Assembly: GCA_965220195.1 (NCBI GenBank)
Contig: CBDCPK010000005.1
Coordinates: forward strand, 1,347,704 to 1,411,703
Direction of reading: 5' to 3'
Length of the DNA stretch: 64,000 nt
From: an uncultured Candidatus Binatia bacterium
Lineage (GTDB): Bacteria; Desulfobacterota; Binatia; Bin18
Positions 2,191 through 35,984 of the stretch are shown piece after piece (the first letter of the stretch is position 1; each line of letters begins with the position of its first letter). Made by a program: the position numbers and the translations under genes. The notes under the pieces are model-generated. The model searched no databases, had not been told where the DNA came from, and saw only the letters and a program-made list of their open reading frames with translations.

Positions 2191-3873
2191 CTACGCGCTG
2201 CGCAGCACCTGCCCGGCAAACGCGCCGGTATGGTCGAGCCCGTCCATAAAGACCTGGCCGTTGACCAGGGTGTACTCATAGCCCGCGGATTTTTGAATAT
2301 AGCGCCCGCTTCCGGCGGGGAAATCGTACACAAAGGTCGGCGGCGGTAGCCGCAAGTTGTCATAATCAATGACGTTCACATCGGCGTAGGCGCCTTCGCG
2401 CAGTACGCCCCGGTCATGAATGCCGAACAGTTGGGCCGGTTCCGCGGTCAACATATGAATGGCCTGTTCGAGCGCAAAGTGCTCGCGTTCCTTGACCCAA
2501 TACTTCAGAAAATAGGTCGGCAGGCTGGAATCCATGATCTGCCCGCAGTGGGCGCCGGAGTCGCCCAGGCCAATGACGACCTGCGGATGATCCAGCATGT
2601 GCTGCACGGCTTCAAACTGCGGGTTGAGGAAGGGATAGTTGAACAGCGTCTCGCCATTATTGTCGAGAGACAAGGTAATAAAGGCTTCGCCCGGACTCAC
2701 TCCAAGGCGGTCGGCATGGGTCTGGAGACTGTCCGGTGCCCCCAGGTCATAGCGCACTTCACCCTTGGGCAGGACAAAGATCTGACTGAAATCAATCGGC
2801 GGCGGATCGTCCTTGGCTTCCTGTACCATTCGCGCCTGATAGGCCGGGTCACGCAGTTTGGCGACTTTGTCGGCCAGGCTCAGGCCGCGCAGGGCTCGCC
2901 ACGCCGGAGCCCGGTCAAAAGGCGTCCGATTGACAAAGCCGAACAGCACGCCAATGCCCCGCGTGGTGGACTGGGCAAAGACTTTAGCACCGCGCCTGGC
3001 GCTGGCGTTGATCTGGTCCAGCATGGACGCATACGCCGTCGGATGCGGGCGGCTCTGGGCCAGGCCAAAAGTCACGGGTCGGCCGGTGGCCAAGCTGACT
3101 TCCGTCATCCAGTGCACCTCGCGTTGCAGGTCTGCCTGACTGCCGCTGTCGATACCCGGCGCGGCCTCAACCACGCCGCGTTGCAGCTCGCCCAACGCGC
3201 TGGTAATGCCCATCAACTCGTCAAATTCGGCAAACGTACCGGGAACGGGCTGCCCCTCCGGCGTGCGATGGAGAATGGTCCGCGAGGTAGAGAATCCGAG
3301 CGCCCCGCCTGCAATGGCTTCGGCGACAATATCACGCATCTTGCCAATGGCCTCGGGGTTGGCGGGTTTGTTTTCCAGGCTTTCCTCACCCATGGCCCAA
3401 TAGCGAACCGCGCAGTGACCAACCATACCGCCGACGTTGACCCCTTTGGGAGCCGTATCGAGCGCCTTGAGATATTCCCCGTAGGTTTCCCATTTCCAGG
3501 GCATGCCTTCGGTAATGCTCGCCGCGGGAATATCTTCCACCGATTCCATTAAGTGAGCCAGATAGTCCCGGTCTTGCGGACGGCACGGGGCAAACGTCAC
3601 GCCGCAATTGCCCATGACAACCGAGGTCACGCCGTGCCAGCACGAGGAGGAGACCGCGGGGTCCCACCAGATCTGGGCGTCCAGGTGGGTATGAATGTCA
3701 ACAAAACCGGGGGTGACGAGCTTGCCCTCGGCATTGATGGTCCGTTTGGCCGCACCGGTCACCGTACCGATTTCGGCGACTCGGTCGCCCTGGATGGCAA
3801 CATCCGCGCGTCGTTGCTGACTGCCGGTACCGTCAATGACGGTCCCGTTTTTGATGACGATATCGTAGGCCAT
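2191..3873 (-). CDS. N-acyl-D-amino-acid deacylase (D-aminoacylase, amidohydrolase superfamily)
   Basis: MAYDIVIKNGTVIDGTG...GFVDIHTHLD carries the metal-binding HxH. The 560-aa length and overall similarity match D-aminoacylases. Confidence 0.8.
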   Translation of the reverse strand: MAYDIVIKNGTVIDGTGSQQRRADVAIQGDRVAEIGTVTGAAKRTINAEGKLVTPGFVDIHTHLDAQIWWDPAVSSSCWHGVTSVVMGNCGVTFAPCRPQDRDYLAHLMESVEDIPAASITEGMPWKWETYGEYLKALDTAPKGVNVGGMVGHCAVRYWAMGEESLENKPANPEAIGKMRDIVAEAIAGGALGFSTSRTILHRTPEGQPVPGTFAEFDELMGITSALGELQRGVVEAAPGIDSGSQADLQREVHWMTEVSLATGRPVTFGLAQSRPHPTAYASMLDQINASARRGAKVFAQSTTRGIGVLFGFVNRTPFDRAPAWRALRGLSLADKVAKLRDPAYQARMVQEAKDDPPPIDFSQIFVLPKGEVRYDLGAPDSLQTHADRLGVSPGEAFITLSLDNNGETLFNYPFLNPQFEAVQHMLDHPQVVIGLGDSGAHCGQIMDSSLPTYFLKYWVKEREHFALEQAIHMLTAEPAQLFGIHDRGVLREGAYADVNVIDYDNLRLPPPTFVYDFPAGSGRYIQKSAGYEYTLVNGQVFMDGLDHTGAFAGQVLRSA

Positions 3874-5688: not shown

Positions 5689-5944
5689 TGCCATCAGCGT
5701 CCCGGCCTTTATAGCCGGTCGGCCTCCAGAAACGGACACTGATAGAAGGCACTCAGGGCCTCGCCAGGCGTGCATTTGGGTACACCAAACCGCGCAATCA
5801 GAATCGATTCGAGCCTGGAGGGCGGACAGGGTCGGCGCGTCAGTGGGTGGCTGTGATATCCCTGGTTTTCTAGCGGATTCTGGCCCAATCGGGTGGCCTT
5901 GGATGCTTGTCTCTATCCGAGCAGGTGTGGTACACGAGGCACTC

Positions 5945-7513
5945 ATGAATTTGGTGCAGCATTTCTGGAACCAGCTTTCTCACGATGCAGACCGCGTGCT
6001 GTTTGAACATCTCGCGCCTTCGGGAGCAGTCATTTGGCGGCAAACCCGTGGCGCGTTGCTCACGGAGGCCTCGCTGTGGATGGCCGCCCTGCGCGGTGCC
6101 GGCATCCGGCCGGGTGACCGGGTTGCCCTGTCGCTGGGCAAAGCCACCGGTCTGGTCACCGCGCATTTAGCTATTCTTGGTGTCGGGGCCGGGGTGGTGC
6201 CGCTCAATCCCGCGCTGTCTGCGGTCGAGACTGAAGCCGTCCTGAAACAGGCCGAGGTCAAACTGGCGATTACGATCCCATCAACAGTCAACCGCTCGCC
6301 GGAGATTATCAATGCGGTCAACGGGCCGTGGTGGGTCGCGACCCAGGCTGAAGAGTCGGACGATGTTCCGCAGCAGACCGTAGCCTTAGCTAAAGTCCTG
6401 GCCGGTTATCAGCCCGGCGACGAACCCTATATCGGCCCGGACGACGCAGTTGCCCTACTGCTGTTCACCAGTGGAACGACCGGGCAACCCAAAGGCGTTG
6501 GGCTGACTCACCACAACATCGCTGCCAACCTGCAAGCCCTGCTGGTCGATACCTGGAAAATGAGTGCTGAGGACCGTCTGTTACACGCCCTGCCGCCGCA
6601 CCATCTGCACGGCCTGGGTCTCGGCCTGTACGGAACGTTGTACGTTGGCAACGCGGCTGTGCTGCTGGACCGCTTCGATCCTGTGGTCGTTCTGACCGCG
6701 TTGGCTCAACATCGTATTAGCGTATTTATGGGCGTTCCGACCATGTATCACCGTATGACCGAGCGTATGGCCGAGCTGGCCGGAGACCTGTCGTATGCCT
6801 CGATGCGGGTGTTTATCTCCGGCTCCGCACCGCTCTCGCCGGAGACCTTTCGGCGCTTTGAAGAACAGTCGGGTTTCCGTATTGTCGAACGTTATGGCTT
6901 GACCGAGACCGCGATCAATACGTCCAATCCTCTAGACGGTGAGCGCCGCTCCGGTACGGTTGGTCCGGCCTTGCCGGGGGTTGAGGTTGGGGTTTTCGAT
7001 CCGCACACCAAGCAGCCGCTCTCACCAGAGGAGACCGGAGAAATCTGGGTGCGTGGGCCGAATGTCTTTAGCGGCTACTGGAACAATCCGGAGGCCACCG
7101 CGGCGGCCTTCTGTGGCGACTGGTTTCGCACCGGCGATTTAGGTGTCTTATCCGCAGACAACTATCTGTCCATCAACGGTCGGATGAAGGAACTCATCAT
7201 CGTGGGCGGAACCAATGTCACGCCGGGGGAGGTTGAAGCCGTATTGGAAACCCAGGCGGGTGTACGTGAGTGTGCGGTTGCCGGTGTGCCGGATGCGGAT
7301 TTGGGCGAAAAAGTCGCGGCCTTCATCGTTCCCCAGTCTGACCGGGACGCAGCGAACCTTGAAGACCAGCTGCGCCAACGAGCCGAACAGGACCTTGCGC
7401 CGTATAAGCGTCCACGCCTGTATCGATTCCTGGCCGAAATTCCGCGTAACTCCATGGGTAAGGTCGAACGTGGCAAACTCAGGGACATGGGAAACGAAGC
7501 GTCAGAGGTCTGA
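5945..7513 (+). CDS. AMP-dependent synthetase/ligase (acyl-CoA synthetase family)
   Basis: The motifs LLFTSGTTGQPKGV (AMP-binding), YGLTET and TGDLG are present. The start is assigned to the internal ATG at 5945 (MNLVQHFW...). Confidence 0.8.
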   Translation: MNLVQHFWNQLSHDADRVLFEHLAPSGAVIWRQTRGALLTEASLWMAALRGAGIRPGDRVALSLGKATGLVTAHLAILGVGAGVVPLNPALSAVETEAVLKQAEVKLAITIPSTVNRSPEIINAVNGPWWVATQAEESDDVPQQTVALAKVLAGYQPGDEPYIGPDDAVALLLFTSGTTGQPKGVGLTHHNIAANLQALLVDTWKMSAEDRLLHALPPHHLHGLGLGLYGTLYVGNAAVLLDRFDPVVVLTALAQHRISVFMGVPTMYHRMTERMAELAGDLSYASMRVFISGSAPLSPETFRRFEEQSGFRIVERYGLTETAINTSNPLDGERRSGTVGPALPGVEVGVFDPHTKQPLSPEETGEIWVRGPNVFSGYWNNPEATAAAFCGDWFRTGDLGVLSADNYLSINGRMKELIIVGGTNVTPGEVEAVLETQAGVRECAVAGVPDADLGEKVAAFIVPQSDRDAANLEDQLRQRAEQDLAPYKRPRLYRFLAEIPRNSMGKVERGKLRDMGNEASEV

Positions 7514-7537
7514 AGGCAGCCTGAAGGAGTAGCGATC

Positions 7538-8389
7538 ATGCAGCTCGTCACCTATGAACGCAACAACCAACGCAGTACGGGCGCGTTGACCGCCGCCGGT
7601 GTTGTCGATCTCCCGAGCGCCTCGCATGGAGCGATCCCCGGAGACATGCTGGACCTGATCCAAGGCGGAGCAGCCGTGCTGGCTCGGGCGCGGGAAGCCA
7701 GCGGTGCCGGCAGTCCGATTCCACTGGCCGATGTCCAGCTCAAAGCCCCTATCGCGAGACCGGGGAAACTCCTCGGGATCGGATTGAACTATGCCGACCA
7801 CGCCGCTGAAGGCGGCAGGAAGAAGCCGGACTATCCGCTGATTTTTGCCAAGACCGTGTCGGCGACAATCGGCCTGGGAGAGGCGATTCTCCTTCCGCCG
7901 GTGAGTCAGATGGTTGATTTTGAGGGCGAGTTGGCGGTCGTGGTCGGCGCCTTTGCCAGAGCGGTTTCAGCCCAGGACGCCCTCGATTACGTTGCCGGTT
8001 ACACGATTTGTAACGATGTGAGCGCGCGCGACTATCAGCGCCGGAGCGGCCATACGCCCGGCAAGTCGTTTGAGACGTTTGCGCCGTTGGGGCCGGTCAT
8101 TGTCACCCGAGATGACATCCCCGATCCCCACGCGTTGGACATTCGGACCGTGGTGAGCGGGCAAGAAATGCAGCACTCCAATACGAAACATCTGATTTTT
8201 CGGATTCCTTATCTGATTGAGTATCTATCGCATATCTTTCCCCTGGAACCGGGCGATGTGATTACCACCGGAACCCCTTCAGGCGTTGGTGCCTATCGCG
8301 AGCCGCCTCGCTTTCTCAAGGATGGCGATACGGTCCGGATTGAAGTGGAGGGGATTGGGGTTTTGGAGAACCCGGTCGTGGCCGGCTGA
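7538..8389 (+). CDS. Fumarylacetoacetate hydrolase (FAH)-family hydratase/isomerase
   Basis: GLNYADHAAE...PLIFAKT...FEGELAVVVG...ICNDVSARDYQ is the classic FAH-domain pattern. An RBS (ggag) lies 6 nt upstream. Confidence 0.85.
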   Translation: MQLVTYERNNQRSTGALTAAGVVDLPSASHGAIPGDMLDLIQGGAAVLARAREASGAGSPIPLADVQLKAPIARPGKLLGIGLNYADHAAEGGRKKPDYPLIFAKTVSATIGLGEAILLPPVSQMVDFEGELAVVVGAFARAVSAQDALDYVAGYTICNDVSARDYQRRSGHTPGKSFETFAPLGPVIVTRDDIPDPHALDIRTVVSGQEMQHSNTKHLIFRIPYLIEYLSHIFPLEPGDVITTGTPSGVGAYREPPRFLKDGDTVRIEVEGIGVLENPVVAG

Positions 8390-8485
8390 AAAGCGTCTCT
8401 TGAGTCTATAGGGTCCTAGGGTCTGTTGGGTCAAGACTCAAGAGACTCAACGATCCAACAGACCCAACCACGCAGAAAGTGGACG

Positions 8486-10234
8486 ATGGCGGACCCGCGC
8501 ACAGACACCCACCAGGACATTCGCTACGAACCTGATGAGCGTCCTCCGCTCGCGCTCACCCTCGGGCTGGGGCTTCAGTATACCGTGATTGCTATGGCAA
8601 GCGTCATGGTGACGCCCGCCATAATGATCCAATTGGCCAAAGGCAGCGAGGCGTATTTATCCTGGGCGGTCTTTTCGGCGCTGATTATCAGCGGGGCCAC
8701 CACGCTCATTCAAGTGATCCGGTTTGGGCGCTTTGGCTCGGGCTATATTCTGCTTATGGGGAGCACGAACGCCTTCCTTCCCGTCTGCGTGTCAGCCCTG
8801 GAGCAGGGGGGGCCGGGTCTGTTGGCGAGTTTGATCATCATTTCCTCCTTCTTCCAGTTCATCATGGCCGGGAAGTTGTCGCTCCTTCGACAGATATTCA
8901 CGCCAACAGTGGCCGGTACCGCGATGCTCCTGATTCCCGTCATGATTGGGCCGCTTATCATGAAGAAGTTGGTGGACGTACCAGAGTGGGCTTCTCCTGC
9001 GGCTGCACCGGCAACGGCGGCCGTAACCGTCCTCGCGATGATCGTTGTGGCGATCCGCGGCTCTGGAATGTGGCGATTGTGGGCTCCCATCATCGGCTTA
9101 GGAGCCGGCAGTATCACGGGGGCCTTTTTCGGCCTATACGAGACCGCCCGCATTCCTGAAGCAGACTGGATTGGGACGCCCTCTATGGTATGGCCCGGAT
9201 TCGATCTGAGCTTTGGTCCGCACTTCTGGGCTCTGCTACCGGCGTTCGTGATGATAACATTTGTGGGAGCGCTCGATACGGTTGGGGATACCATCGCAAT
9301 ACAACGGGCCTCGTGGCGCAGACCGCGGGCCGTGGACTTTCGCTCGATACAAGGCTCGCTCAATGCCGACGGGCTGGGCAATCTGCTCTCGGGGCTTGCT
9401 GGTACGGTGCCGAACACGACCTATGCGGCCAGTATCGCGATTGCCGAAATCACCAGAGTGGCATCGCGGGCGGTTGGCGTGTGCGTGGGAGGACTGTTCC
9501 TGGTCATTGCCTTCCTGCCCAAACTGATCGCGGTGGTGTTGGCCATCCCGAGTCCGGTGATGGCAGCGTACCTCATTGTGATCGTGTCCGTTCTCTTTGT
9601 GATGGGTATTCGCGTTCTTGTCCAGGACGGACTCGACTATCAAAAGGGGGTGATTGTCGGATTCTCGTTCTGGACCGGAATTGCCATGCAGTTTGGCTGG
9701 ATATTCCCTGATTATCTCCATGGAACGCTGGGGGAATTGTTAGAGAACGGGGTGACAACCGGCTGCGGCATAGTGATCGTCCTGACCTTATTCCTTCGCC
9801 TGACGGGCTCACGTCCGCAACGTTTCAAGACTGCCGTCCATATAGAAGCACTCCCGAAAATGGACACCTTTCTGTCTGAATTTGCCGCCCGCAAACGCTG
9901 CGGCCCGGAATGGGCCGAGCAACTCCGAGCGGTCGGAGAGGAAGCATTACTGACGTTTATTCAACAGCAAGGCGGTGGAAAAGCACGGGAAGAGCGCCAA
10001 ATGCTCCTCATTGCACGAAAGAATGGCAGAGCAATCGATTTGGAGTTTATTGTGTCTGCCAACAAGGCCAACTTGGAGGATCAAATGGCAGTCCTCAGTG
10101 AACAGGCCGCTGAGATACCCAATGAAGATGAGCTTTCCCTGCGCCTGCTCCAACACCACGCTACGTCCGTACGCCATCAGCAATTCCACGATACCGACGT
10201 GGTCACGGTTCGTGTGGAGTCGGCGGGCTCTTGA
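8486..10234 (+). CDS. NCS2-like (xanthine/uracil permease family) transporter with a roughly 150-aa C-terminal cytoplasmic extension, paralog 1
   Basis: The N-terminus QDIRYEPDERPPLALTLGLGLQYTVIAM resembles the NCS2 GLQH region. There are about 12-14 predicted TM segments. The tail ends ...HHATSVRHQQFHDTDVVTVRVE and is shared with paralogs 2 and 3. Confidence 0.65.
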   Translation: MADPRTDTHQDIRYEPDERPPLALTLGLGLQYTVIAMASVMVTPAIMIQLAKGSEAYLSWAVFSALIISGATTLIQVIRFGRFGSGYILLMGSTNAFLPVCVSALEQGGPGLLASLIIISSFFQFIMAGKLSLLRQIFTPTVAGTAMLLIPVMIGPLIMKKLVDVPEWASPAAAPATAAVTVLAMIVVAIRGSGMWRLWAPIIGLGAGSITGAFFGLYETARIPEADWIGTPSMVWPGFDLSFGPHFWALLPAFVMITFVGALDTVGDTIAIQRASWRRPRAVDFRSIQGSLNADGLGNLLSGLAGTVPNTTYAASIAIAEITRVASRAVGVCVGGLFLVIAFLPKLIAVVLAIPSPVMAAYLIVIVSVLFVMGIRVLVQDGLDYQKGVIVGFSFWTGIAMQFGWIFPDYLHGTLGELLENGVTTGCGIVIVLTLFLRLTGSRPQRFKTAVHIEALPKMDTFLSEFAARKRCGPEWAEQLRAVGEEALLTFIQQQGGGKAREERQMLLIARKNGRAIDLEFIVSANKANLEDQMAVLSEQAAEIPNEDELSLRLLQHHATSVRHQQFHDTDVVTVRVESAGS

Positions 10235-10293
10235 TGTGTAGGGCCGCGCGACGCACGGCTCCTTACGCAACCACGAAGGGAAGGAAGTGAACG

Positions 10294-12045
10294 ATGGCGG
10301 AGCAGTCCACTCATACCCCCCAGGATATTCGCTACGAGCCCGATGAGCGTCCCCCACTTGCGCTCACCATCGGGCTTGGGCTCCAGTATGCCGTCCTCGT
10401 CGTTGCCGGCGTCGTGCTGACGCCGGTCATGATGATTAGAATTGCGGGCGGCAGTGAAGCCTATCTGTCCTGGGCGGTGTTCGCCGCGCTCGTGATCAGC
10501 GGGGTCACCTCGGTGATGCAGGCCGTCCGTATCGGGCACGTTGGCGCGGGCTATCTTCTCCTCATGGGCAGTTCGGGCGCCTTTATCGCCGTCTGCGTGT
10601 CAGCCCTGGAGCAGGGTGGGCCGGGACTGATGGCGAGCCTGATTATCATTGCCTCTCTCTTCCAGTTTGTGCTTGCGACCAAGCTGTCGTTGTTCCGGCG
10701 AATCTTCACGCCAACGGTGGCCGGCACCGTGCTGATGCTGATTCCGGTGACCATAGGACCGATCGTCCTGGGCAAGCTGACCGACGTGCCGGAGGGGGTG
10801 TCACCTGTGGCTGCGCCCGTGACTGCTTGTGTGACCCTGGTGGTCACGATTGCGATGTCGCTCGCTCGCTCCAGCACGTGGCGGCTCTGGGCTCCGGTCA
10901 TTGGGATAGGCGCGGGCAGCGCGGTCGGTGGTCTGGGCTTCGGCATCTACGACACCGCGCGTATCCTTGAGGCGGACTGGGTCGGCTTGCCCGCCGTCGC
11001 GTGGCCCGGCCTCGATCTCAGCTTCGGCCCGGCCTTCTGGGCCCTTTTGCCGGCGTTCGTGATGGTGACGCTTATTGGCGCACTCGATACGATTGGCGAC
11101 GGCATTGCGATCCAACGGGCCTCGTGGCGCAGGCCGCGTGCTATCGACTTCCGTGCGATTCAGGGCGCGCTCACTGCCGATGGCCTGGGTAATCTGCTCT
11201 CCGGTTTCGCCGGCACGGTGCCCAACACGACGTATGCGTCGAGTATCTCGGTCGCCGAAATTACCAGAGTGGCGGCTCGTTCTGTTGGCGCGTGTGTGGG
11301 TGTCATCTTCGTCGTGCTGGCCTTCCTGCCGAAATGTGTGGCCGCTGTGGTGGCCATCCCGAGTCAGGTAGTGGCGGCCTACTTCATCGTGCTGATGGCC
11401 ATCCTCTTCATCATGGGCATGCGCATCCTCTTTCAGGACGGTCTCGACTATCGAAAGGGCGTTATCGTGGGCCTCGCGTTCTGGATTGGGAGCGCGTTTC
11501 AGCTTGACTGGATCTTCCCGGAATACTTCCAGGGGCCGTGGAGCGAACTGCTCGGGAACGGGATGACCGTCGGCGGCTTCACCGTGATGTTCCTGACGCT
11601 GTTCGTCGAGCTGACCGCGTCGCGTCGCCAACGCCTCAAGACCCTCTTGAACGTCGATGCCTATTCAGAGGTTGATGCCTTCCTGTCTGGATTTGCTGCC
11701 CATCGGGGCTGGAATCAAGAGATGACGGATCGACTGCGCGCGGTCGGTGAGGAGACGCTCCTCGTCCTTATCCAGCAGAAAGAGAAAGGTTCGACACACG
11801 CCGAGCGCCGCCTGCTGCTCATCGCGCACGGCGATGGCGAGGCGGCTGATCTGGAGTTCATCGCCGCAGCCGACGAGACAAATATCGAAGATCAGATGGC
11901 ACTACTCAGCGAACGGGCTGCGGATACGCCGGTCGAGGAGGAACTCTCCCTGCGGCTGCTGCGACACTACGCCACGTCCGTGCGCCATCAGCAATTCCAC
12001 GACACTGACGTGGTCACAGTCCGCGTGGAGCCGATCGTCTCTTGA
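10294..12045 (+). CDS. NCS2-like permease with C-terminal extension, paralog 2
   Basis: It is about 70% identical by eye to paralog 1 over the whole length. An RBS (gaagggaaggaag) lies upstream. Confidence 0.65.
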   Translation: MAEQSTHTPQDIRYEPDERPPLALTIGLGLQYAVLVVAGVVLTPVMMIRIAGGSEAYLSWAVFAALVISGVTSVMQAVRIGHVGAGYLLLMGSSGAFIAVCVSALEQGGPGLMASLIIIASLFQFVLATKLSLFRRIFTPTVAGTVLMLIPVTIGPIVLGKLTDVPEGVSPVAAPVTACVTLVVTIAMSLARSSTWRLWAPVIGIGAGSAVGGLGFGIYDTARILEADWVGLPAVAWPGLDLSFGPAFWALLPAFVMVTLIGALDTIGDGIAIQRASWRRPRAIDFRAIQGALTADGLGNLLSGFAGTVPNTTYASSISVAEITRVAARSVGACVGVIFVVLAFLPKCVAAVVAIPSQVVAAYFIVLMAILFIMGMRILFQDGLDYRKGVIVGLAFWIGSAFQLDWIFPEYFQGPWSELLGNGMTVGGFTVMFLTLFVELTASRRQRLKTLLNVDAYSEVDAFLSGFAAHRGWNQEMTDRLRAVGEETLLVLIQQKEKGSTHAERRLLLIAHGDGEAADLEFIAAADETNIEDQMALLSERAADTPVEEELSLRLLRHYATSVRHQQFHDTDVVTVRVEPIVS

Positions 12046-12127
12046 TGATCAGACCCGATCAACGTGCGGCTCCTCTCGCGCTCTCCGTCTTCCTGACGCT
12101 GTGCCATGTCCCTGCTATAGTCATGAG

Positions 12128-13729
12128 GTGCCCCCAACTGACACGCCTGTAGACCCTTCCCAACAGACTCCTGACTCTTTGCGGTCCCGGATCGCTCGGA
12201 AGGGCAGCCCCATTATCATTGCGACGCTGCTGAGCCGGCCGCTGGGTTTTATCCGGGAAGCCGTTCAGGCCGCGCTGTTTGGGGCGTCTCGCCTGACGGA
12301 TGCCTTTCTGGTTGCGTACAACGTCCCGGAAATGATGCAGACCCTTTTCTTCAGTGGGGTGCTGAGCAATTTTTTCGTGCCGGTCATCACCCGCTATCGC
12401 GACAAGAAAGATGAGCTGAGTACGATTTTCAGCCTCGCTCTGAATGGGGCTCTCCTGTTGGCCGTGCTGCTGGCCGGTGGGTGTTATGTTTTCGCCTCCG
12501 GCCTTATGACCGCCGCTGCGCCTGGTTTGGCCGGGGACGATCACGAGCTGGCGGTTTTTCTGTTTCGGTTCATGCTGCCCATGCTGGTTCTGCACTGCCT
12601 GCTGGCCGTAATGAAGGGTACGCTTAACAGCCTCGACCACTACGCCATGCCGGAATACGCGGGGGTGTTTTTCAATCTGGTCATGATTCTGTGCGCCCTG
12701 GCTCTCGCGCCCAGCTATGGCATTACCAGTCTGGCGGTCGGCGTTGTTGCCGGTAGCGGCCTCCAAGTGCTTGTTCAGCTCCCCAGCCTGAGACGGTGCG
12801 GTATCCGCTATCGACTGACTCTGGCGTTCTCTCACCCGGCCCTGCGAGAAATGGGTGGCCTTGCGCTCGGCGCATTTATTGCCACGGCGGTTGTGCCGAT
12901 TAACGCCTTTGTGGCGCGGGCGCTGGCATCAACCCTGGCAGAAGGCAGTATCTCCGCGCTGGCGTATGCCTTTCGGGTGTTTCTGTTACCTGTCAGTCTG
13001 GTCGCGGTGCCGGTCTATACTGTGCTGCTGACGGAACTCTCAAGTGCCCACAACGAGGGACAGCTTGCGACTTTCAAAAAACAGGCCGAGGCCGGGCTCT
13101 CTCTGCTCTTCGCCCTTGCCCTGCCGGCAACGGCGATCCTGATTGCCCTGGCGCTGCCCATCACCCGCCTGCTGTACGAACGCGGTCAATTTACCCCGGA
13201 AGACGCGGCCATGACCAGCCAGGCCCTGATGGCCTACGGGATTGGCATCCTGGCCTATGGGACCAGTCAAGTGATGGTGCGCCTCTTTAACGCGACAAAA
13301 GACACCCGAACGCCCGCTTGGATTGGCGTTGGCTCGGTTGGGCTGCACGCGGCCGGCTGTTGGCTACTGATGCAGGTATGGAGCCACTGGGGTATTGCCC
13401 TGGTGACCTCGCTGGTGTCCTATCTGAATACACTTGTCCTGTACGTTATTTTTCGGCGACGACACGGTCCGCTGGATGAAGGGACACTCCTTCGAAGTCT
13501 TGGGGCTCATGTCTTGTTAGCGATGGTTTTGGGCGGTTGCCTGTTTTTTTTCAGCCAGCCTCTGGCCGCTGCCCCCGGCTCGCTCATGACCGGTGAGCGT
13601 CTCCTCCGTTTGGCTGGAATCCTGGTCGCCGGCGGGGGTGTGTATCTCGCGCTCGGTCTGCTGCTCAAAGTCGAAGAGATTCGTACGGGAGTGCGTGTAC
13701 TCAAGCGGGCGGCGAGGGGACTGAAATAA
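12128..13729 (+). CDS. murJ: Lipid II flippase MurJ (MviN family)
   Basis: ...SRIARKGSPIIIATLLSRPLGFIREAVQAALFGASRLTDAFLVAYNVPEMMQTLFFSGVLSNFFVP matches the MurJ N-terminus, and there are 14 TM segments. There is no ATG after the upstream stop. The start is therefore assigned to GTG 12128 (alternatively TTG 12179). The first 127 codons of the ORF-track entry are a non-coding overlap. Confidence 0.7.
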   Translation: MPPTDTPVDPSQQTPDSLRSRIARKGSPIIIATLLSRPLGFIREAVQAALFGASRLTDAFLVAYNVPEMMQTLFFSGVLSNFFVPVITRYRDKKDELSTIFSLALNGALLLAVLLAGGCYVFASGLMTAAAPGLAGDDHELAVFLFRFMLPMLVLHCLLAVMKGTLNSLDHYAMPEYAGVFFNLVMILCALALAPSYGITSLAVGVVAGSGLQVLVQLPSLRRCGIRYRLTLAFSHPALREMGGLALGAFIATAVVPINAFVARALASTLAEGSISALAYAFRVFLLPVSLVAVPVYTVLLTELSSAHNEGQLATFKKQAEAGLSLLFALALPATAILIALALPITRLLYERGQFTPEDAAMTSQALMAYGIGILAYGTSQVMVRLFNATKDTRTPAWIGVGSVGLHAAGCWLLMQVWSHWGIALVTSLVSYLNTLVLYVIFRRRHGPLDEGTLLRSLGAHVLLAMVLGGCLFFFSQPLAAAPGSLMTGERLLRLAGILVAGGGVYLALGLLLKVEEIRTGVRVLKRAARGLK

Positions 13730-13744
13730 AATCGGAACGAAAAG

Positions 13745-14686
13745 TTACCGTATGCTTTGTGCATCTTCGACAAAGGGGCAAGGGAGATGCTCTGCGCTGA
13801 ACTGACGCCGTAGGGCCGTGGGCGCGGCAAAGGACGAGCCGCGGATAGACCAGAACGATTGACTCGGATACTCGCTCCGGGTTGGAGAATAACCGGAAAT
13901 GCACGTAATCGGAATGTCCGGGCATTGGTCGTTGTTGACGGCATAGCCGATGGGTTTGCCCGGTGCGTGGGAAATCAGCCGAATCAGGTAGGCGGCATGG
14001 TCGTGGATATCGACAAAGACGTTATCCGCGACAAAACGCCGCAACTCCGGTTCCACCGCACCAACGGTGATGACACCATTCGCAAAGGAATAGGTATTGA
14101 CCATGCCTGGCCCGCCGTTGCCGGCGATGGTGTACACGTTCACCCCCGAATCAACCAACGCCTCAAGCGTTCGAATAATCTCATAGGTTAACAGCCAGGT
14201 TTCCTCCGACTCTCCCCACTTTCTGATTTGGGCCTTGTATGCCTCGGCACGTTCAAGCCGGAGAGGTTTTTCAAAAGCACTGATCAGGGTGGACGATTCC
14301 CAGGACATCAGGACCGCATCAATGCGCTCACCCAGAAAGACTTGCCGCTTGATACGCTGCAACGTGGCCAGCAGTTCGTGTTTGGGCGGATTATAGTTTC
14401 GGACCGGATACGGAATAAGCGAGACCAGGGGATGGGCCGCAATCAGGCTGACCATGTCGCCATGATAATAGGGTTCGCGAATCCAATCGCGGTCCAGATC
14501 GACGATTCCATAGAGCCAGCGTTGGGTTGTCCGCTCTTCCTGCGTCTTGAATACTGCATCGCCCGGATAAAAATGATCCACCACGGCCACGCGGTAGCGG
14601 GCCTCTGTGGGTTGTAAGGACTGGAAGGTGCACGGAGTGTGCAGCAGTGCAGCCGTAGCCACGGTCAGAAAAGAGACAATCCCCAT
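13745..14686 (-). CDS. Secreted protein with a divergent subtilase (S8)-like triad
   Basis: It has a signal peptide. Candidate Asp (VAVVDHF), His (HGDMVS) and Ser (GSSFAAP, like GTSMAAP) lie in subtilase order, and an AGNGGPG glycine-rich segment is present. Similarity is weak. Confidence 0.4.
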   Translation of the reverse strand: MGIVSFLTVATAALLHTPCTFQSLQPTEARYRVAVVDHFYPGDAVFKTQEERTTQRWLYGIVDLDRDWIREPYYHGDMVSLIAAHPLVSLIPYPVRNYNPPKHELLATLQRIKRQVFLGERIDAVLMSWESSTLISAFEKPLRLERAEAYKAQIRKWGESEETWLLTYEIIRTLEALVDSGVNVYTIAGNGGPGMVNTYSFANGVITVGAVEPELRRFVADNVFVDIHDHAAYLIRLISHAPGKPIGYAVNNDQCPDIPITCISGYSPTRSEYPSQSFWSIRGSSFAAPTALRRQFSAEHLPCPFVEDAQSIR

Positions 14687-14804
14687 AAGCGACCCCCCCA
14701 GGACAACTATTATGGCATGGATTGAGGAGATAGGGTAACGAAAACATTCCCTGTGAGGTGCGGGAGCATTATCGGCCGTTCATATGGGACATGAGGAGTG
14801 CGTG

Positions 14805-16571
14805 ATGGGTGTTGACGATTCCGGCCAGCTTGCGAGCGTACGCTACCAGCCCGACGAAAAACCGCCGCCAGCGATTGCGTTCGGTCTCGGTCTACAGTTC
14901 GCCATTCTCATCATTGCCAGAATAGTCGTGATCCCCATGGTTGTGGTCCGGGCCGGCGGTGGGACCGAAGCCTACCTGTCCTGGGCGCTGTTTGCCGCAG
15001 TCTCGATCTGTGGCCTGACCACGGTACTGCAAGCGTTCCGGTTTGGCCGTATTGGTGCGGGCTATGTCGCCGTGATGGGCACCTCCCTGGCTGTCGTAGC
15101 GGTGAGCATCACGGCGGTGGCCGAGGGCGGCCCGGCGTTGCTCGCGACCCTGGTGGTCGTTGCGTCGCTGGTCCCGCTGGCGCTTTCCGCCCGGCTCTCG
15201 CTGTTTCGGCGGCTCCTGACCCCGACCGTTTCGGGGACGGTCATCATGCTGATCCCGGCCACATTGATGCCAACGGTCTTCGGTCTCCTAGAGGAGGTGC
15301 CGGTGGGAACCTCGACTCTGGCCGCTCCGTTGAGTGCCCTCGTGACCGTGTTGATCATTATCGGCATCGCGCTCAGGACAACAGGAGCGCTGCGTCTCTG
15401 GGCACCGGTGATCGGTGTAGCCCTCGGCTCTTTGGCGGCGGGGTGGGTCGGTCTCTTCAACGTGGACGGCATCGCCGAGGCTGCGTGGGTCGGCCTCCCG
15501 GCGGGCGAATGGCCCGGCTTGGCTCTTGATTTCGGACCAATTTTTTGGGCGCTTCTGCCCGCATTCGTACTCGTGGCTCTGATCGAAAGCGTCCAGACGA
15601 TCAGCAATGCCGTCGCCGTACAGCGTGTCTCCTGGCGGCAGCTCCGGGCGGTGGATTTTCGGGCGGTACAGGGTGCGGTGACGGCAGCCGGAATCGGCAA
15701 CCTGCTGTCTGGCTTGGCCGGAACGGTGCCGAATACACTGCTATCGACCGGCGTGGCGGTGGTCGAACTCACCGGGGCGGCGGCCCGCCGCGTCGGGGTT
15801 GCCGTTGGGGTCGTATTCGTCGCCGTCGCCTTCCTTCCCAAGGCGCTCGCCGTGGTCCTGGCGATACCGGGTCCGGTCGTCGCGGCCTATCTCGCCGTCT
15901 TACAGGCGACGCTCTTCGTGGTCGGCATGAAGGTCATCGTTCAGGACGGAATCGACTATCGCAAGGGGTTGGTTGTCGGCCTGTCGTTCTGGGTCGGTGT
16001 CGGTTTTCAGAATGGCGCGATATTCCCCGAGTTTGCTCAGGCATTCGCCGGAGGCCTGCTGCGGAATGGGGTCACGGCCGGCGGTCTCATGGCCATCCTG
16101 ATGACGTTCTTCATGGAGATGACAAAACCGCGCCGTGGCCGGATGGAGACACGGTTCGATCTCTCAGCTCTGCCAAAGATCAGGGAGTTTCTCGTCGCGT
16201 TCGCGTCCCGTGGTGGCTGGGCTGGGACGATGGCCGAGCGCCTTGAGGCTGTCGGCGAGGAGACGTTGCTGACGCTGCTCGGGCAAGACGAGGCCGGCGA
16301 GGAGAAAGAGCAGCGACGGCTCCTCTTGATGGCGCGCAAGGAGGGGGATAGAGCGGTACTCGAGTTCATTGCGGCGACCGGCAAGGACAATCTCCAGGAT
16401 CGGATCGCGCTGCTTGGCGATCAGATGGGCGAAATTCCGATCGAGCGGGACGTTTCGCTTCGGCTGTTGCGACACCTCGCGTCTTCGGTTCGCCACGAGC
16501 AATATCATGACACTGATATCGTGACTGTCCGTGTGGATGCCCCGGAGAAAATTCCCGGCGGGCATGCCTAA
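14805..16571 (+). CDS. NCS2-like permease with C-terminal extension, paralog 3
   Basis: It has the same architecture as paralogs 1 and 2: ...YQPDEKPPPAIAFGLGLQFAIL... and the shared tail ...SSVRHEQYHDTDIVTVRVD. An RBS (gaggag) lies 6 nt before ATG 14805. Confidence 0.65.
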   Translation: MGVDDSGQLASVRYQPDEKPPPAIAFGLGLQFAILIIARIVVIPMVVVRAGGGTEAYLSWALFAAVSICGLTTVLQAFRFGRIGAGYVAVMGTSLAVVAVSITAVAEGGPALLATLVVVASLVPLALSARLSLFRRLLTPTVSGTVIMLIPATLMPTVFGLLEEVPVGTSTLAAPLSALVTVLIIIGIALRTTGALRLWAPVIGVALGSLAAGWVGLFNVDGIAEAAWVGLPAGEWPGLALDFGPIFWALLPAFVLVALIESVQTISNAVAVQRVSWRQLRAVDFRAVQGAVTAAGIGNLLSGLAGTVPNTLLSTGVAVVELTGAAARRVGVAVGVVFVAVAFLPKALAVVLAIPGPVVAAYLAVLQATLFVVGMKVIVQDGIDYRKGLVVGLSFWVGVGFQNGAIFPEFAQAFAGGLLRNGVTAGGLMAILMTFFMEMTKPRRGRMETRFDLSALPKIREFLVAFASRGGWAGTMAERLEAVGEETLLTLLGQDEAGEEKEQRRLLLMARKEGDRAVLEFIAATGKDNLQDRIALLGDQMGEIPIERDVSLRLLRHLASSVRHEQYHDTDIVTVRVDAPEKIPGGHA

Positions 16572-16710
16572 AGCGGCCATGAGTAGGCGTGGGGTAGTGC
16601 GCCCCCTTCTCCTGTACCGAGTTGGAATGCGTGTATAGCTGTAAGGTTATAGTCTATCGTGAGACGCGTGCATTCCAGGGGCGGACGGGCGTAGCGTGAT
16701 CCGATCCAAG

Positions 16711-18600
16711 TTATTGAGAGAGGGCTTCGAGCACTTCCCAGCGTTCGTAGGCCTGTGCGAGTTCTCGTTCGATGTCGCGCAGGCGCTGTTGCAATGGCGC
16801 GACCTCCGCTCCGCCTCCACGGTAGAGTGCGGCGTCGGACAGTCTGGCGTGTATCTTGGTCTGCTCGTGCTCAAGCGCCTCAATGCGCTGCGGCAGCGCT
16901 TCAAGCTCGCGCTGTTCCTTGTAGCTGAGCTTGCGCTGCCGTTCCTGACGTTCTCGTTGGAGAGGTGCCGCTTTCGGCTCAGGTTTCTGGGGTGCGCTTT
17001 CCGTGGGGAGACGCTGACGCAGCCAGTCATCATAGCCACCAATATATTCGCCAATGTGTCCGTCGCTTTCAAAGGCGAGGGTGCTGGTGACAACATTATT
17101 GAGAAAAGTACGATCATGGCTCACCAAGAGGATTGTACCGGAGTAGGCGAGCAGGAGTTCTTCGAGCAGTTCCAGGGTCTCGGCGTCGAGATCGTTGGTG
17201 GGCTCGTCGAGGACCAGCACATTCGAAGGCTGGGTAAACAGGCGGGCGAGCAACACCCGGTTCCGCTCGCCGCCGGATAAGACACTCACCGGACTCCGGG
17301 CACGGTCCGGCGAAAACAGAAAGTCTTGCAGGTAGCCGATGATATGGCGTTCCTTGCCGCCGAAGGTGACGTGATCGTTTCCCCGTCCCACGATCTCCTG
17401 GACCGTTTTATCAGCATCAAGTGGCGTACGGAGTTGGTCGAAATACGCGACTGCCAGGTTGGTGCCGTGCTGGACACTGCCGTGTTGGGGCATGAGTTCG
17501 CCCAATAAAAGCTGAAGCAATGTCGTTTTTCCTATGCCGTTCGGACCGATGATGCCGATCTTATCACCACGCATAATCACCGTGGAAAAGTCCTTGACAA
17601 CAGGCTGGTCGGCATAGGCGTAGCTGACATCTTGCGCCCGCAGCACGAGTTTTCCGGAGCGCTCCGCTTCCTGGACCTGGAGACGGACCGTGCCCGGTTG
17701 CTCGCGGCGGGCGCTCCGGGTCGCCCGTAACGCCTGAAGGGCTCGCACACGGCCCTCATTCCGAGTCCGTCGGGCTTTAATGCCCTGACGAATCCAGGCC
17801 TCTTCCTGGGCGAGTTTTTTATCGAACTGGGCCCAGTGTTGGGCCTCAGTCTCAAACGCCGCCTGTTTCCGTTCCAGGAAGGTTTCATAGTCGCACGACC
17901 AACTCGTCAAACGTCCCCGGTCGAGTTCCACAATACGGGTGGCAAGATTTTTGAGCAGCATGCGATCGTGGGTCACAAAGACGAGGGTCTTGCCCTGTTG
18001 CAGCAAGAACTCTTCGAGCCAGGTAATAGACTCGACATCGAGATGGTTGGTCGGTTCGTCGAGCAGTAGAATATCGGGATCGCTCACCAAGGCTTCTGCT
18101 AGCAGCACGCGGCGTTTGAGCCCGCCGGAAAGCGTGTTGAATGCGGCACGCTCGTCGAGTTTCAACCGGGTCAGTGTTTGCTCAACCCGCTGATGGACCA
18201 GCCAGCCGCCGTTGCTATCGACAGTCTGTTGCAGCTGCTCCAACTGCCGGAGCAGTTTTGGGTCATTCGTTTGGCTCACTTGAGCACTGACGGTGTGATA
18301 GGCCGCCAGAGTGTCGCCCAGCCGGCCTAAGCCCTGGGTCACGCGCTGTAATACCGTCCCAGGCAGAGACAGAGGAATGTCCTGAGGGAGGAATCTGGCG
18401 CGTGTATCCTTAGCGCGGACGAGCTGACCGGCATCGGGCCGGACCTCACCCTGAATCACTTTCATCAGGGTAGACTTCCCCGCCCCGTTGCGGCCCAGGA
18501 TGCCAACCCGCTCCCCCGCTTCGAGTTGCAAACTCACCCCGTCCAGCAACGGCGGCTCTCCAAAGCTGACCCGGACATCCTGAAGGCTCAGTACTGCCAT
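16711..18600 (-). CDS. ABC-F family ATPase (Uup/EttA-like, tandem ABC domains)
   Basis: It has two Walker A motifs (GRNGAGKST, GPNGIGKTT) and two LSGGE signatures, and no TM domain. The C-terminal coiled-coil region is typical of Uup. Confidence 0.85.
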   Translation of the reverse strand: MAVLSLQDVRVSFGEPPLLDGVSLQLEAGERVGILGRNGAGKSTLMKVIQGEVRPDAGQLVRAKDTRARFLPQDIPLSLPGTVLQRVTQGLGRLGDTLAAYHTVSAQVSQTNDPKLLRQLEQLQQTVDSNGGWLVHQRVEQTLTRLKLDERAAFNTLSGGLKRRVLLAEALVSDPDILLLDEPTNHLDVESITWLEEFLLQQGKTLVFVTHDRMLLKNLATRIVELDRGRLTSWSCDYETFLERKQAAFETEAQHWAQFDKKLAQEEAWIRQGIKARRTRNEGRVRALQALRATRSARREQPGTVRLQVQEAERSGKLVLRAQDVSYAYADQPVVKDFSTVIMRGDKIGIIGPNGIGKTTLLQLLLGELMPQHGSVQHGTNLAVAYFDQLRTPLDADKTVQEIVGRGNDHVTFGGKERHIIGYLQDFLFSPDRARSPVSVLSGGERNRVLLARLFTQPSNVLVLDEPTNDLDAETLELLEELLLAYSGTILLVSHDRTFLNNVVTSTLAFESDGHIGEYIGGYDDWLRQRLPTESAPQKPEPKAAPLQRERQERQRKLSYKEQRELEALPQRIEALEHEQTKIHARLSDAALYRGGGAEVAPLQQRLRDIERELAQAYERWEVLEALSQ

Positions 18601-21023: not shown

Positions 21024-21975
21024 TCAGGCGATTAATGATGCGCTTGCCGAAGAAATGCGGCGCGATGAAAACGTGATTCTGTACGGTCAGGACGTTGCGG
21101 TCTGGGGTGGGATTTTCAAAGTCACCGACGGGCTGCTTGAAAAGTTCGGTCCGGATCGCGTGTTCGATACGCCGATCTCCGAGAGTGTGATGGTCGGCGC
21201 CGGTGTGGGCGCGGCCTCGATGGGCCTGCGGCCGGTGGTGGAACTCCAGTTTGCCGACTTCGTCATCACCGCGGGTGATGAAATTTTCTTTAAGGCCGGT
21301 ATGTGGCGCTATATGCACGGTGGGGCGCATACGATTCCGCTGGTGGTGCGCGCTCCCTCGGGCGGCTCGGGCTTTGGACCCGAGCATTCAGCCTGTCCCG
21401 AAGCCTTTATCATGCACGCGCCCGGCCTGCTGTGCGCCGTGCCCTCAACGCCGGCAGACGCCAAGGCTCTGCTCAAGCAGGCGATTCGACTGGATAACCC
21501 GGTCATCTATTTTGAGCATAAACTACTGTATCAAATGCGGGGCGAGGTACCGGACGGAGAGGTGCTGACTCCCTTTGGCAAAGCAGTCGTCCGACGCGAG
21601 GGCGAGGCCGTGACGATTGTGGCCTGGCAGGACATGTTGCGCCGTTCGCTCGCAGCCGCGGAGCGACTGAGCCAGGAAGGCATCGAGGTAGAGATCGTCG
21701 ATCCGCGTACCCTGAATCCGTTTGACCGCGAAACCATTATCGAGTCGGTCAAAAAGACCGGAGCCTGTATTGTGGTGGAAGAGGCCTATCGTACACTTGG
21801 GGTTGGGGCGGAGATCGGGGCGCTGCTCCTGGAAGAGGTCCTCCCCTATCTGGACAAACCCTTCAAGCGCTTGGCTATTCCCGATGTGCCGATTCCGACC
21901 AGCCAGCATCTGGTCGATGCTATCGTTCCTTCGGCAGACGATATTTATCGGGCGGTCAAAGAACTCGCTGACTGA
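21004..21975 (+). CDS. 2-oxoacid dehydrogenase E1 component, beta subunit (transketolase-like)
   Basis: MPTRTYSQAINDALAEEM...VILYGQDV...LQFADF is the E1-beta pyrimidine-binding domain. An RBS (aggag) lies 5 nt before ATG 21004. Confidence 0.85.
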   Translation: MPTRTYSQAINDALAEEMRRDENVILYGQDVAVWGGIFKVTDGLLEKFGPDRVFDTPISESVMVGAGVGAASMGLRPVVELQFADFVITAGDEIFFKAGMWRYMHGGAHTIPLVVRAPSGGSGFGPEHSACPEAFIMHAPGLLCAVPSTPADAKALLKQAIRLDNPVIYFEHKLLYQMRGEVPDGEVLTPFGKAVVRREGEAVTIVAWQDMLRRSLAAAERLSQEGIEVEIVDPRTLNPFDRETIIESVKKTGACIVVEEAYRTLGVGAEIGALLLEEVLPYLDKPFKRLAIPDVPIPTSQHLVDAIVPSADDIYRAVKELAD

Positions 21976-22003
21976 GGCTGGTGTGCGAAATACCAAAGTC
22001 GTG

Positions 22004-27694: not shown

Positions 27695-28360
27695 TCAACG
27701 TAAAGTATTCTTTTCGACCCTGGCGACACCGATCATCGAGTCGCGGCTGACCAGCGCGGTGAGTTCTTCTTCACTCATGCTCTCGGTTCCGGCGGGCCGT
27801 TCGGGCAGGACCATATAGCGGATTTCTGCGCTACTGTCCCAGACCTTCACTGCGGTGGATTCGTCGAGTTCCAGACCAAAGTCCCGCAGCACACCACGCG
27901 GGTCCACCACCGAACGCGAGCGATAGGCCGCATCCTTGAACCAGGCCGGCGGTAGCCCCAGAACCGGCCACGGATAGCAGGAGCACAGAGTGCAGACGAC
28001 CAGGTTATGGGTGTCCGGGGTGTTCTCAACCACTACCATATGTTCGCCCTGGAGGCCGCTGAAGCCGAGTTCCGCAATGGCGGAGGTGGCGTCTTCGAGC
28101 AGGCGCTCTTTATACGCCGGATCGACCCAGGCTCGGGCCACAACCTTGGCCCCGTTGATCGGCCCGAGGTCGCTCTCATACGTTTCGACCAGCTTGTCGA
28201 GCGTTTCCGAAGAGACCAGACCCTTGGCTACCAGTAAGGACTCCAGGGCCCGCACCCGTTGCTCCAGAGCCGCGGTCTGTTCGGGAGAGGTGTGTTTCTC
28301 CAGGTAGGGATTCGGCGGGGCATCGTGGGCGCTATGGCCGTGAGTATGATCGCTACTCAT
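27695..28360 (-). CDS. nthA: Nitrile hydratase alpha subunit (cobalt type)
   Basis: The metal-binding motif is [10 protein letters not shown]. Thr and Tyr at these positions mark Co-type enzymes, whereas Fe-type enzymes have Ser and Thr. An RBS (aaggag) lies upstream. Confidence 0.9.
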
Positions 28361-28371
28361 GACTCTTCTCC

Positions 28372-29031: not shown

Positions 29032-29113
29032 ACGTTTCTCCTCGGGCTCAATGCGTGGGCACCAGCCTAACACCCGGTCTGGTGAGGGTCAATCAATTGA
29101 GCGCGGTGGAAAC

Positions 29114-35981: not shown

Positions 35982-35984
35982 GAA

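Follow-up and report, generated by a model that had tools for sequence, protein, structure and literature searches.

Permeases of the NCS2/SLC23 class, whose substrates include uracil, xanthine, uric acid, and vitamin C, are textbook elevator transporters. To our knowledge, they are generally described without a dedicated cytoplasmic regulatory domain, unlike the SLC26/SulP transporters, with their STAS domain, and SLC4. What the STAS domain does has long been debated. SLC26 and SLC23 have a 7+7 fold in common, to which SLC26 adds STAS (PMC6497670). In bacterial partner switching, the opposite partner of STAS (SpoIIAA-like) proteins is a GHKL protein of the SpoIIAB/RsbW/UsfX type (PF13581), which is free-standing, and RsbW homologues without kinase activity work purely through binding (PMC7693655). 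Here, we analyze three permease genes in a window of 64,000 nucleotides (the whole stretch of DNA that was analyzed), each of which encodes an NCS2-class core followed by a tail whose predicted fold is that of these anti-sigma-factor kinases.

Three paralogous permeases

The permeases are encoded on the plus strand by gene 1 (582 aa; 8486..10234), gene 2 (583 aa; 10294..12045), which starts 59 bp 3′ of gene 1, and gene 3 (588 aa; 14805..16571). Gene 2 is 65% and gene 3 is 48% identical to gene 1 over the full length, and in tblastn the paralogues resemble one another well past chance in both the core (E 0 to 1e-122) and the tail (E 1e-50 to 4e-40). All three match PF00860 (Xan_ur_permease) over residues ~27-401 with E 1e-37 to 1e-42 (1.5e-41 for gene 1) and scores of 127-143 bits, the gathering cutoff being 27. 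These results bear out the first-pass annotation, which had called three paralogous NCS2-like permeases here. It had also described one soluble C-terminal domain of 150 aa, common to the three and ending in a strongly conserved motif. The conserved tail and its closing motif (...SLRLL.H.A.SVRH.Q.HDTD.VTVRV. in the alignment of genes 1-3) are both present, but the length is about 140 aa (about residues 442-582). The tails are encoded on the plus strand at 9809..10231 in gene 1 (141 aa), 11620..12042 in gene 2 (61% identity to the gene 1 tail), and 16128..16568 in gene 3 (50% identity to the gene 1 tail). Proteins with identical sequences and the same starts are present in a public collection, where the sole source name that we met for them is "hypothetical protein," and the three-gene locus is present in four independent assemblies.

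Gene 3 is parted from the gene 1-gene 2 pair by two context genes that lie outside the system: murJ, for the lipid II flippase (12179..13729, plus strand; PF03023 E 4.5e-96; TIGR01695 above cutoff), and a divergently oriented 313-aa ORF (13745..14686, minus strand). The earlier identification of murJ stands. The label "secreted-protease-like" for the ORF is weakly supported because its sole similarity is a sub-threshold, weakly subtilase-like match to Peptidase_S8 (PF00082, E 0.052), with no Pfam match at E ≤ 0.01. The ORF is missing from the close relative L080, in which murJ runs directly into gene 3; in locus L081, murJ is called as a 516-aa gene. A promoter and terminator scan of positions 7400-17000 returned signals at chance level.

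The core matches UapA and UraA in profile comparison. In the full-length AF2 model of gene 1, a predicted structure only, the core (residues ~17-440) has 14 TM segments in a 7+7 inverted repeat with the UraA fold, including short β-strands in TM3 and TM10 (residues 91-93 and 310-312). Foldseek searches with this model gave UapA as the best match (E 3.6e-15), followed by UraA (7e-14) and SVCT1 (1e-13), and then by SLC26 and SLC4. We take the product of each gene to be a secondary transporter that belongs structurally to the NCS2/NAT/SLC23 class (UapA, UraA, XanQ, SVCT1; PF00860, TCDB 2.A.40), with TM14 predicted to lead into the tail within about four residues. The likeness to the class lies in the Pfam match and in the 14-TM, 7+7 UraA fold. 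The differences are a folded domain formed by about 140 additional C-terminal residues and scores well under the NCBIfam cutoffs for genes 1-3, at 149-166 bits for TIGR00801 (ncs2; curated cutoff 291.8) and 166-189 bits for TIGR03173 (pbuX; curated cutoff 414). NF037981 was barely passed, by gene 1 alone (41.1 against a cutoff of 40). Neither PF00916 (Sulfate_transp) nor PF01740 (STAS) matches genes 1-3 in Pfam.

A tail of predicted GHKL fold

The first-pass annotation could not assign the tail to a known fold, and from sequence this remains so. The tail matched nothing in Pfam at E ≤ 10, HATPase_c and HATPase_c_2 included; an NCBIfam search of the full proteins gave no match in the tail; and searches of PDB sequences (phmmer and profile hmmsearch) returned designed-repeat artifacts only (Tako8, ThreeFoil). 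The domain is, as had been claimed, unrecognized by these sequence databases. Structure prediction, on the other hand, does assign a fold. The AF2 model of the gene 1 tail (pLDDT 79.5, pTM 0.77; residues 101-108 and 56-59 of low confidence) has the element order b-a-a-b-b-a-a-b-b, which was repeated in the independent full-length run, although there the pLDDT falls to 33-61 in the second half of the tail. The best Foldseek match of the tail model is UsfX (8ih8_D, E 3.7e-6, TM 0.67), and the top 19 are UsfX, RsbW, or SpoIIAB without exception (probability 1.00, E 4e-6 to 1e-3, TM 0.55-0.67, rmsd of 4-7 Å to the matches). SiaB, the RsbW domain of Rv1364c, and histidine-kinase CA domains form the next tier. 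GHKL proteins make up ~42 of the top 50 matches, no other fold exceeds a probability of 0.2, and no STAS fold is among the matches. Because the matches are near-exclusively GHKL, a chance match of topology is unlikely. We conclude that the tail is predicted to adopt a GHKL/Bergerat α/β sandwich, nearest to the anti-sigma-factor kinases SpoIIAB, RsbW, and UsfX, with a likeness at the level of fold only.

Homology to GHKL proteins is not demonstrated by these data, since hhalign comparisons of the tail with RsbW and SpoIIAB (3 sequences) and of 228 tails with 120 SpoIIAB and RsbW sequences were both non-significant (probabilities of 0.1% and 0.5%). For the same reason, that the likeness is one of fold without a sequence-family match, the tail does not really count as a known common domain. 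In both of these non-significant alignments, "RAVGEEtLl" of the tail stands opposite "vSEAvTNaI": a Leu of the tail faces the N-box Asn, and a Glu is kept where the catalytic Glu of the N-box helix lies. The ATP/Mg-binding motifs (N-box Asn, G1 DxGxG, and G2 GxxGxG) are absent from the tails; with no GHKL homology at sequence level, the argument from loss of G1 and G2 rests on topological correspondence. Across the 228 tails there is no conserved glycine motif, nor any conserved glycine beyond G43. E44, E45, and H123 are 100% conserved in this set, with the EE pair located in helix 2 of the predicted tail, and E79, N88, and R112 are at least 99% conserved. Because the ATP/Mg-binding motifs are lost while the tail keeps invariant polar residues of its own (EE, E79, N88/D91, R112, and H123), we read it as a putative non-catalytic module of pseudokinase type.

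Compared with SpoIIAB, RsbW, and UsfX, the tail is thus alike in size (~140 aa), in predicted element order, in its near-exclusive best structural matches, and in the Glu kept at the N-box helix position. It differs in having no sequence homology to them and no N-box Asn, G1, or G2 motif, and in being fused to a membrane transporter without adjoining sigma-factor or STAS genes. A working model for such a motif-less tail may be the kinase-inactive RsbW1/UsfX-type and RsbW3 proteins of M. smegmatis, which have the GHKL fold and bind without phosphorylating the partner (PMC7693655). Those proteins, however, are soluble, have recognizable RsbW sequences, and are encoded by genes that adjoin sigF.

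Family history and substrate site

The family is large. At 50% identity it falls into 761 clusters, and its genomic loci number at least 482, of which the best 80 are all from MAGs. Core and tail occur together in 80 of these 80 best loci, and in the 761 representative clusters the tail lies at the extreme C terminus of proteins of ~570-600 aa. Non-terminal tail matches (P0098, P0142, P0173, P0181, and P0010) proved to be frameshifted or chimeric calls, and short "stand-alone" tail proteins were rejected as starts at internal Met codons within TM13/14. The tail is associated exclusively with this permease core.

An NJ tree of the family places genes 1, 2, and 3 in three separate deep clades, each with orthologues from other Binatia genomes; the tail is therefore ancestral to the whole family. 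The gene content of the locus also varies among close relatives: L001-L003 have their gene 1 orthologue at another place, the Binatia locus L006 has gene 2 alone at the same position (gene 2 being related also to L041), and the Binatia locus L080 has gene 3 alone, adjoining murJ. Together, the tree and the differing locus content rule out a recent local triplication, and with it the earlier picture of a triplication equipped with a dedicated tail. Judged from this tree, the three copies are ancient paralogues.

The NAT signature motif of TM10 is [Q/E/P]-N-x-G-x-x-x-x-T-[R/K/G]. In the profile alignment, FAQNNGVIALTR of UapA TM10 pairs with YAASIAIAEITR, so that Q408, N409, and G411 of UapA become A, S, and A, and the residue at the Q408 position differs from clade to clade. 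The canonical signature, which binds nucleobases, was not found across the family. Its [Q/E/P]-N-x-G half is replaced by x-S-[IV]-[AS] in a motif that reads x-S-[IV]-[AS]-...-T-[G/R/K], and only the last two positions, the closing T-[R/G/K], are shared with the class. A further likeness is the acidic pair of TM8 (D/E...D), present in most members, the reference residues being UapA E356/D360 and UraA E241. At these positions the pair reads D/D in genes 1 and 2, E/D in many members of the family, and Q/N in the gene 3 clade, which leaves gene 3 without the acidic pair. Purine-catabolism genes are not enriched near these permeases, either in the 80 loci or among the 112 nearest neighbors. The loss of the [Q/E/P]-N-x-G half makes a nucleobase substrate doubtful, and what these permeases carry is probably something other than a canonical nucleobase. 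The substrate probably also differs among the three copies, as we infer from the residues of the site. The earlier suggestion of a substrate-diversified uptake system gains some support from these clade-specific binding-site residues.

Possible roles of the tail

The reading that we prefer, with confidence somewhat above even, is of an NCS2-class permease that carries a motif-less GHKL-fold tail as a non-catalytic regulatory or dimerizing module with a STAS-like role, the substrates being probably non-nucleobase and the copies ancient paralogues. The tail would sit on the cytoplasmic side, beneath the gate domain, a location taken by homology from the topology of UraA and UapA. There it could stabilize or regulate the transporter dimer by binding either another protein or a small ligand, in a position and role parallel to those of the STAS domain of SLC26/SulP transporters. 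This arrangement suggests what may be an undescribed way to regulate NCS2-class transporters. A regulatory tail, as first proposed, is still the best reading, now in the form of a putative non-catalytic module.

The invariant residues of the tail bear on several alternatives. By a mapping inferred from topology, E44/E45 (N-box helix), E79 (end of β3), H123 (β4), N88/D91 (G1 position), and R112 (G2 helix) all fall on elements that line the GHKL nucleotide pocket, and Glu, His, and Asp are usual metal or ligand ligands. The tail might on these grounds be an allosteric sensor, its ATP pocket remodeled to accept a metal ion or some other metabolite of the cytosol that feeds back on uptake. The same residues would equally fit an interface with the transporter core or a dimer partner, and we regard a sensor as unlikely. 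Far less probable is an active ATP-binding kinase or ATPase with atypical motifs, which would phosphorylate the transporter or a partner or sense the energy state. The predicted GHKL fold and the Glu kept where the N-box helix has its catalytic Glu favor such an activity, but the N-box has Leu in place of its Asn, DxGxG, GxxGxG, and glycines conserved past G43 are missing from the 228 tails, and HATPase_c and HATPase_c_2 stay unmatched in Pfam even at E ≤ 10. We give just as little credence to a purely structural appendage that serves folding, membrane insertion, or oligomerization without regulatory input, its GHKL-like shape being convergent or an artifact of prediction. The lack of homology at sequence level, the moderate TM-scores (0.55-0.67) and rmsd values (4-7 Å), and the low confidence of the tail in the full-length model are compatible with this, yet polar, non-structural residues are extremely conserved across phyla (100% for E44, E45, and H123) and the Foldseek matches converge on GHKL (~42 of the top 50, other folds never above a probability of 0.2).

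The tail could also act in partner switching, capturing a STAS protein or sigma factor at the membrane and releasing it by transport state, which would link substrate availability to transcription. Its nearest structures are partner-switching anti-sigma factors, including complexes with sigma factors or STAS antagonists (8ih8, 8jzt, 6m36, 1th8, and 1l0o), kinase-inactive RsbW homologues function by binding alone (PMC7693655), and polar residues of surface type are strongly conserved in the tails. The gene neighborhoods speak against it: all-versus-all ORF clustering of the 80 best loci found no conserved neighbor genes, a Pfam scan of the 112 nearest neighbors found no family in more than two, neither set is enriched in STAS, PP2C, or sigma-factor genes, and the scanned parts of the window hold none. 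Moreover, the tail has no sequence homology to PF13581, and a partner would be required for each of several paralogues per genome. We think such a transceptor a little less likely even than the ligand sensor.

In comparison with SulP/SLC26, the permeases share the 7+7 superfold (second-tier Foldseek matches) and one compact cytoplasmic domain right after TM14, with a fold drawn from the bacterial partner-switching toolkit. They differ in that the predicted fold of the tail is that of the opposite partner, SpoIIAB/RsbW, rather than STAS. We would read the relation as an architectural analogy only. A bolder version, to which we assign a slightly smaller chance than to the transceptor, is that both partner-switching halves became attached to the C termini of sister 7+7 elevator transporters, STAS in the case of SulP/SLC26 and a domain like SpoIIAB/RsbW in the case of this NCS2 clade. 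The permeases would then be transceptors, with the tail binding a STAS protein (possibly the SulP STAS domain) or a sigma factor by transport state. On the preferred reading of a non-catalytic regulatory module, the GHKL-like tail would, if confirmed, be a new regulatory architecture for the NCS2/SLC23 class in a multi-phylum clade of hundreds of 50%-identity clusters, would add membrane transporters to the settings in which the anti-sigma-kinase fold is known, and would offer a concrete, testable parallel to STAS function. It would also flag as transporters, probably for non-nucleobase substrates, several thousand proteins that are mostly unnamed or "hypothetical" in the lists examined, and whose hosts are uncultured Binatia, Acidobacteriota, Gemmatimonadota, and Proteobacteria.

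Permease genes, membrane core and substrate site

Three paralogous permease genes lie on the forward strand of the window: gene 1 (8486–10234, 582 aa) and gene 2 (10294–12045, 583 aa), separated by 59 bp, and gene 3 (14805–16571, 588 aa). The ORF listing and the full-length identities to gene 1 (65% for gene 2, 48% for gene 3) confirmed the first-pass annotation of three paralogues with a common C-terminal tail; its interpretation as a whole was supported in part. Exact copies of the three proteins, with the same starts, are found in public collections (cluster sizes 71, 19, and 101), where their sole name is "hypothetical protein". The three-gene locus recurs in four independent assemblies, which rules out an assembly artefact, and no further permease copies were found within the window. 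Public gene calls start gene 1 at ATG 8486 (582 aa); upstream, its frame continues without a stop as far as a TTG at 8426 (602 aa if translation began there), and gene 3 has an in-frame ATG upstream at 14784. Between genes 2 and 3 are murJ (PF03023, E 4.5e-96; TIGR01695 above cutoff) and a 313-aa ORF on the reverse strand (13745–14686) with no significant Pfam match and a resemblance, below threshold (E 0.052), to Peptidase_S8 only. By eye, D/H/S-like motifs can be spotted in this ORF.

All three proteins match PF00860 over residues ~27–401 (E 1e-37 to 1e-42), and against PDB sequences the three-protein profile matched the NCS2/NAT/SLC23 transporters UapA (E ~1e-21), UraA (~1e-11), and SVCT1. 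The full-length AF2 model (pLDDT 73.6, pTM 0.69) has 14 TM helices and, as is usual for the UraA fold, short β-strands in TM3 and TM10; Foldseek placed UapA, UraA, and SVCT1 at the top (E 4e-15 to 1e-12) and SLC26, SLC4/Bor1, and AzgA in the next tier. Genes 1–3 score far below the curated NCBIfam cut-offs for ncs2 and pbuX. In the HMMER alignment, UapA E356/D360 of TM8 correspond to D/D in genes 1 and 2 and to Q/N in gene 3; across 76 family members the TM8 pattern is GA[LMI][DE]T[ILV]GD, the gene 3 clade being the exception. The UapA TM10 signature FAQNNGVIALTR pairs with YAASIAIAEITR, so that Q408, N409, and G411 are substituted and T-R alone is retained. Specificity depends in part on the Q408 position of the NAT signature (Q in xanthine/uric acid, E in uracil, and P in ascorbate transporters), and its equivalent varies by clade among the 76 members (A, S, N, H, Q, T, L, M, I, G). 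On the basis of these binding-site residues, we infer that the substrates are not canonical nucleobases and differ between paralogue clades.

Predicted fold and possible role of the tail

The tail comprises the last ~140 residues, starting about four residues past TM14. It had been described as unrecognised, and at the sequence level this stood: the tail matched nothing in Pfam at E ≤ 10 and had no genuine match among PDB sequences, whether one sequence or a profile served as query (matches to Tako8 and ThreeFoil were repeat artefacts). A fold could nonetheless be predicted. Modelled with AF2 from an alignment of 35 tail sequences, the tail gave a confident structure (pLDDT 79.5, pTM 0.77) with the topology β1-α1-α2-β2-β3-α3-loop-α4-β4-β5, and an independent full-length run gave the same element order. 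The 19 best Foldseek matches in the PDB were all anti-sigma-factor Ser kinases, among them UsfX (8ih8, 8jzt; E 3.7e-6, TM 0.67), RsbW (6m36/6m37), and SpoIIAB (1th8, 1l0o, 1tid, 1til), followed by SiaB, the RsbW domain of Rv1364c, and histidine-kinase CA domains. Neither STAS domains nor unrelated folds reached comparable scores. These matches predict a GHKL/Bergerat fold for the tail, of the small anti-sigma-kinase type. The literature searched did not describe an NCS2 protein with a GHKL-like C-terminal domain, and we predict that the permeases form an NCS2-fold transporter clade bearing such a previously undescribed domain. Predicted structure underlies both this fold and every functional reading, and no homology was detected at the sequence level.

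We consider the tail to be probably a non-catalytic regulatory or dimerising module, which would be tethered directly beneath the gate domain of the transporter. The proposed analogy is with the STAS domain of SLC26/SulP, whose 7+7 fold is common to SLC23 (PMC6497670), and kinase-inactive RsbW homologues that act by binding alone are documented (PMC7693655). That the tail is an atypical active kinase is very improbable: compared with the GHKL N-box it retains the Glu but has Leu in place of the Mg-ATP-binding Asn, and a conserved glycine motif able to act as a G1 or G2 box is absent in 228 tails. By sequence comparison the tail does not appear to be a member of the anti-sigma-kinase family, with hhalign probabilities of 0.1% against RsbW + SpoIIAB and 0.5% (E 0.11) against a 120-sequence SpoIIAB + RsbW alignment. 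Both alignments nevertheless match tail "RAVGEEtLl" to the N-box helix "vSEAvTNaI". A purely structural or artefactual GHKL resemblance is, in our view, just as improbable as an active kinase.

Conservation bears on a remodelled ligand or metal pocket, an unlikely but plausible alternative. E44, E45, and H123 are 100% conserved and L78, E79, N88, L111, R112, and L114 at least 98.7% conserved (n = 228); by topology, the polar ones are inferred to sit on elements that line the nucleotide pocket in true GHKL proteins. It is quite unlikely that the tail makes the permease a partner-switching transceptor: STAS, PP2C, and sigma-factor genes were absent from the scanned parts of the window, ORF clustering over 80 loci with tail-bearing permeases returned no conserved neighbour (only shadow ORFs of the permease itself), and every Pfam family occurred in at most 2 of the 112 nearest neighbours. 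Promoter and terminator scans gave chance-level results.

Family distribution and history of the locus

Searched exhaustively with a profile, 1.84 billion representatives yielded the tail in 761 clusters at E ≤ 1e-3, 547 of them at E ≤ 1e-10. Among the best 150 matches, the full-length ones carry the tail at the extreme C-terminus of ~570–600 aa proteins and the others are fragments; the few apparent exceptions were frameshifts or chimeras. At least 482 loci were detected in species-representative genomes. The best 80 are from MAGs only, span Binatia, Vicinamibacterales, Bryobacterales/Terriglobia, Gemmatimonadota, and Alpha- and Gammaproteobacteria, and combine core and tail in 80/80 cases (split cases were frameshifts). 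Many of the MAG names resemble what we take to be sponge-microbiome bins. The nearest relatives of the window are Binatia MAGs (88–96% nucleotide identity). A full-length search returned >6000 relatives, the best 120 of which are all ~583 aa with PF00860 as the only annotation. Members from different phyla are 65–70% identical over full length, and clades of a neighbour-joining tree mix Binatia, Acidobacteriota, Gemmatimonadota, and Proteobacteria, a pattern suggestive of horizontal transfer between uncultured lineages that co-occur.

In that tree (76 full-length members), each of genes 1–3 belongs to a deep clade of its own and has Binatia orthologues there (loci L001–L003, L041, and L080, respectively). 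Locus content varies among close relatives: the surroundings of gene 1 orthologues are unrelated, the order in L006 is AMP-ligase, gene 2, murJ, and that in L080 is FAA-hydrolase, murJ, gene 3. The triplication proposed earlier was thus not borne out as a local event; the deep clades and variable synteny indicate a lineage-specific juxtaposition of old paralogues, with a tail older than their divergence. The 313-aa ORF is missing from the close relative L080, in which murJ abuts gene 3, and is thus an indel between strains. Several genomes have three or more permease copies, some with tandem pairs. Tail-bearing tandem pairs of different clades occur in L011 (3480 and 6450) and L049 (2362 and 6681), and at least three dispersed copies in OZ220728.1 (L016, L019, L074) and CBDEVZ010000008.1 (L017, L041, L062).

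Flanking genes

Hydrolases and amidohydrolases abound in the regions flanking the permease cluster, which include Amidohydro_3 (2191–3873), AMP-ligase (5843–7513), and FAA hydrolase (7538–8389) genes. Nitrile hydratase alpha and beta subunit genes (27695–29073, reverse strand) adjoin a polysaccharide deacetylase and a luciferase-like monooxygenase. From ~30000 to 38000, GC content is 0.47–0.53 (~0.59 elsewhere); this stretch, which encodes a Uma2-family endonuclease, a GDPD phosphodiesterase, a 1041-aa SNF2/ResIII helicase, and a 474-aa ORF without a Pfam match, could be an island that was gained horizontally or is of a defence type. A 642-aa ORF (21722–23650, forward strand) joins lipoyl, E3-binding, and 2-oxoacid-dehydrogenase E2 catalytic domains to a C-terminal OsmC-like peroxiredoxin domain (PF02566, E 2e-13). 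Because OsmC/Ohr peroxidases take reduction from lipoylated proteins, this putative fusion could be informative.
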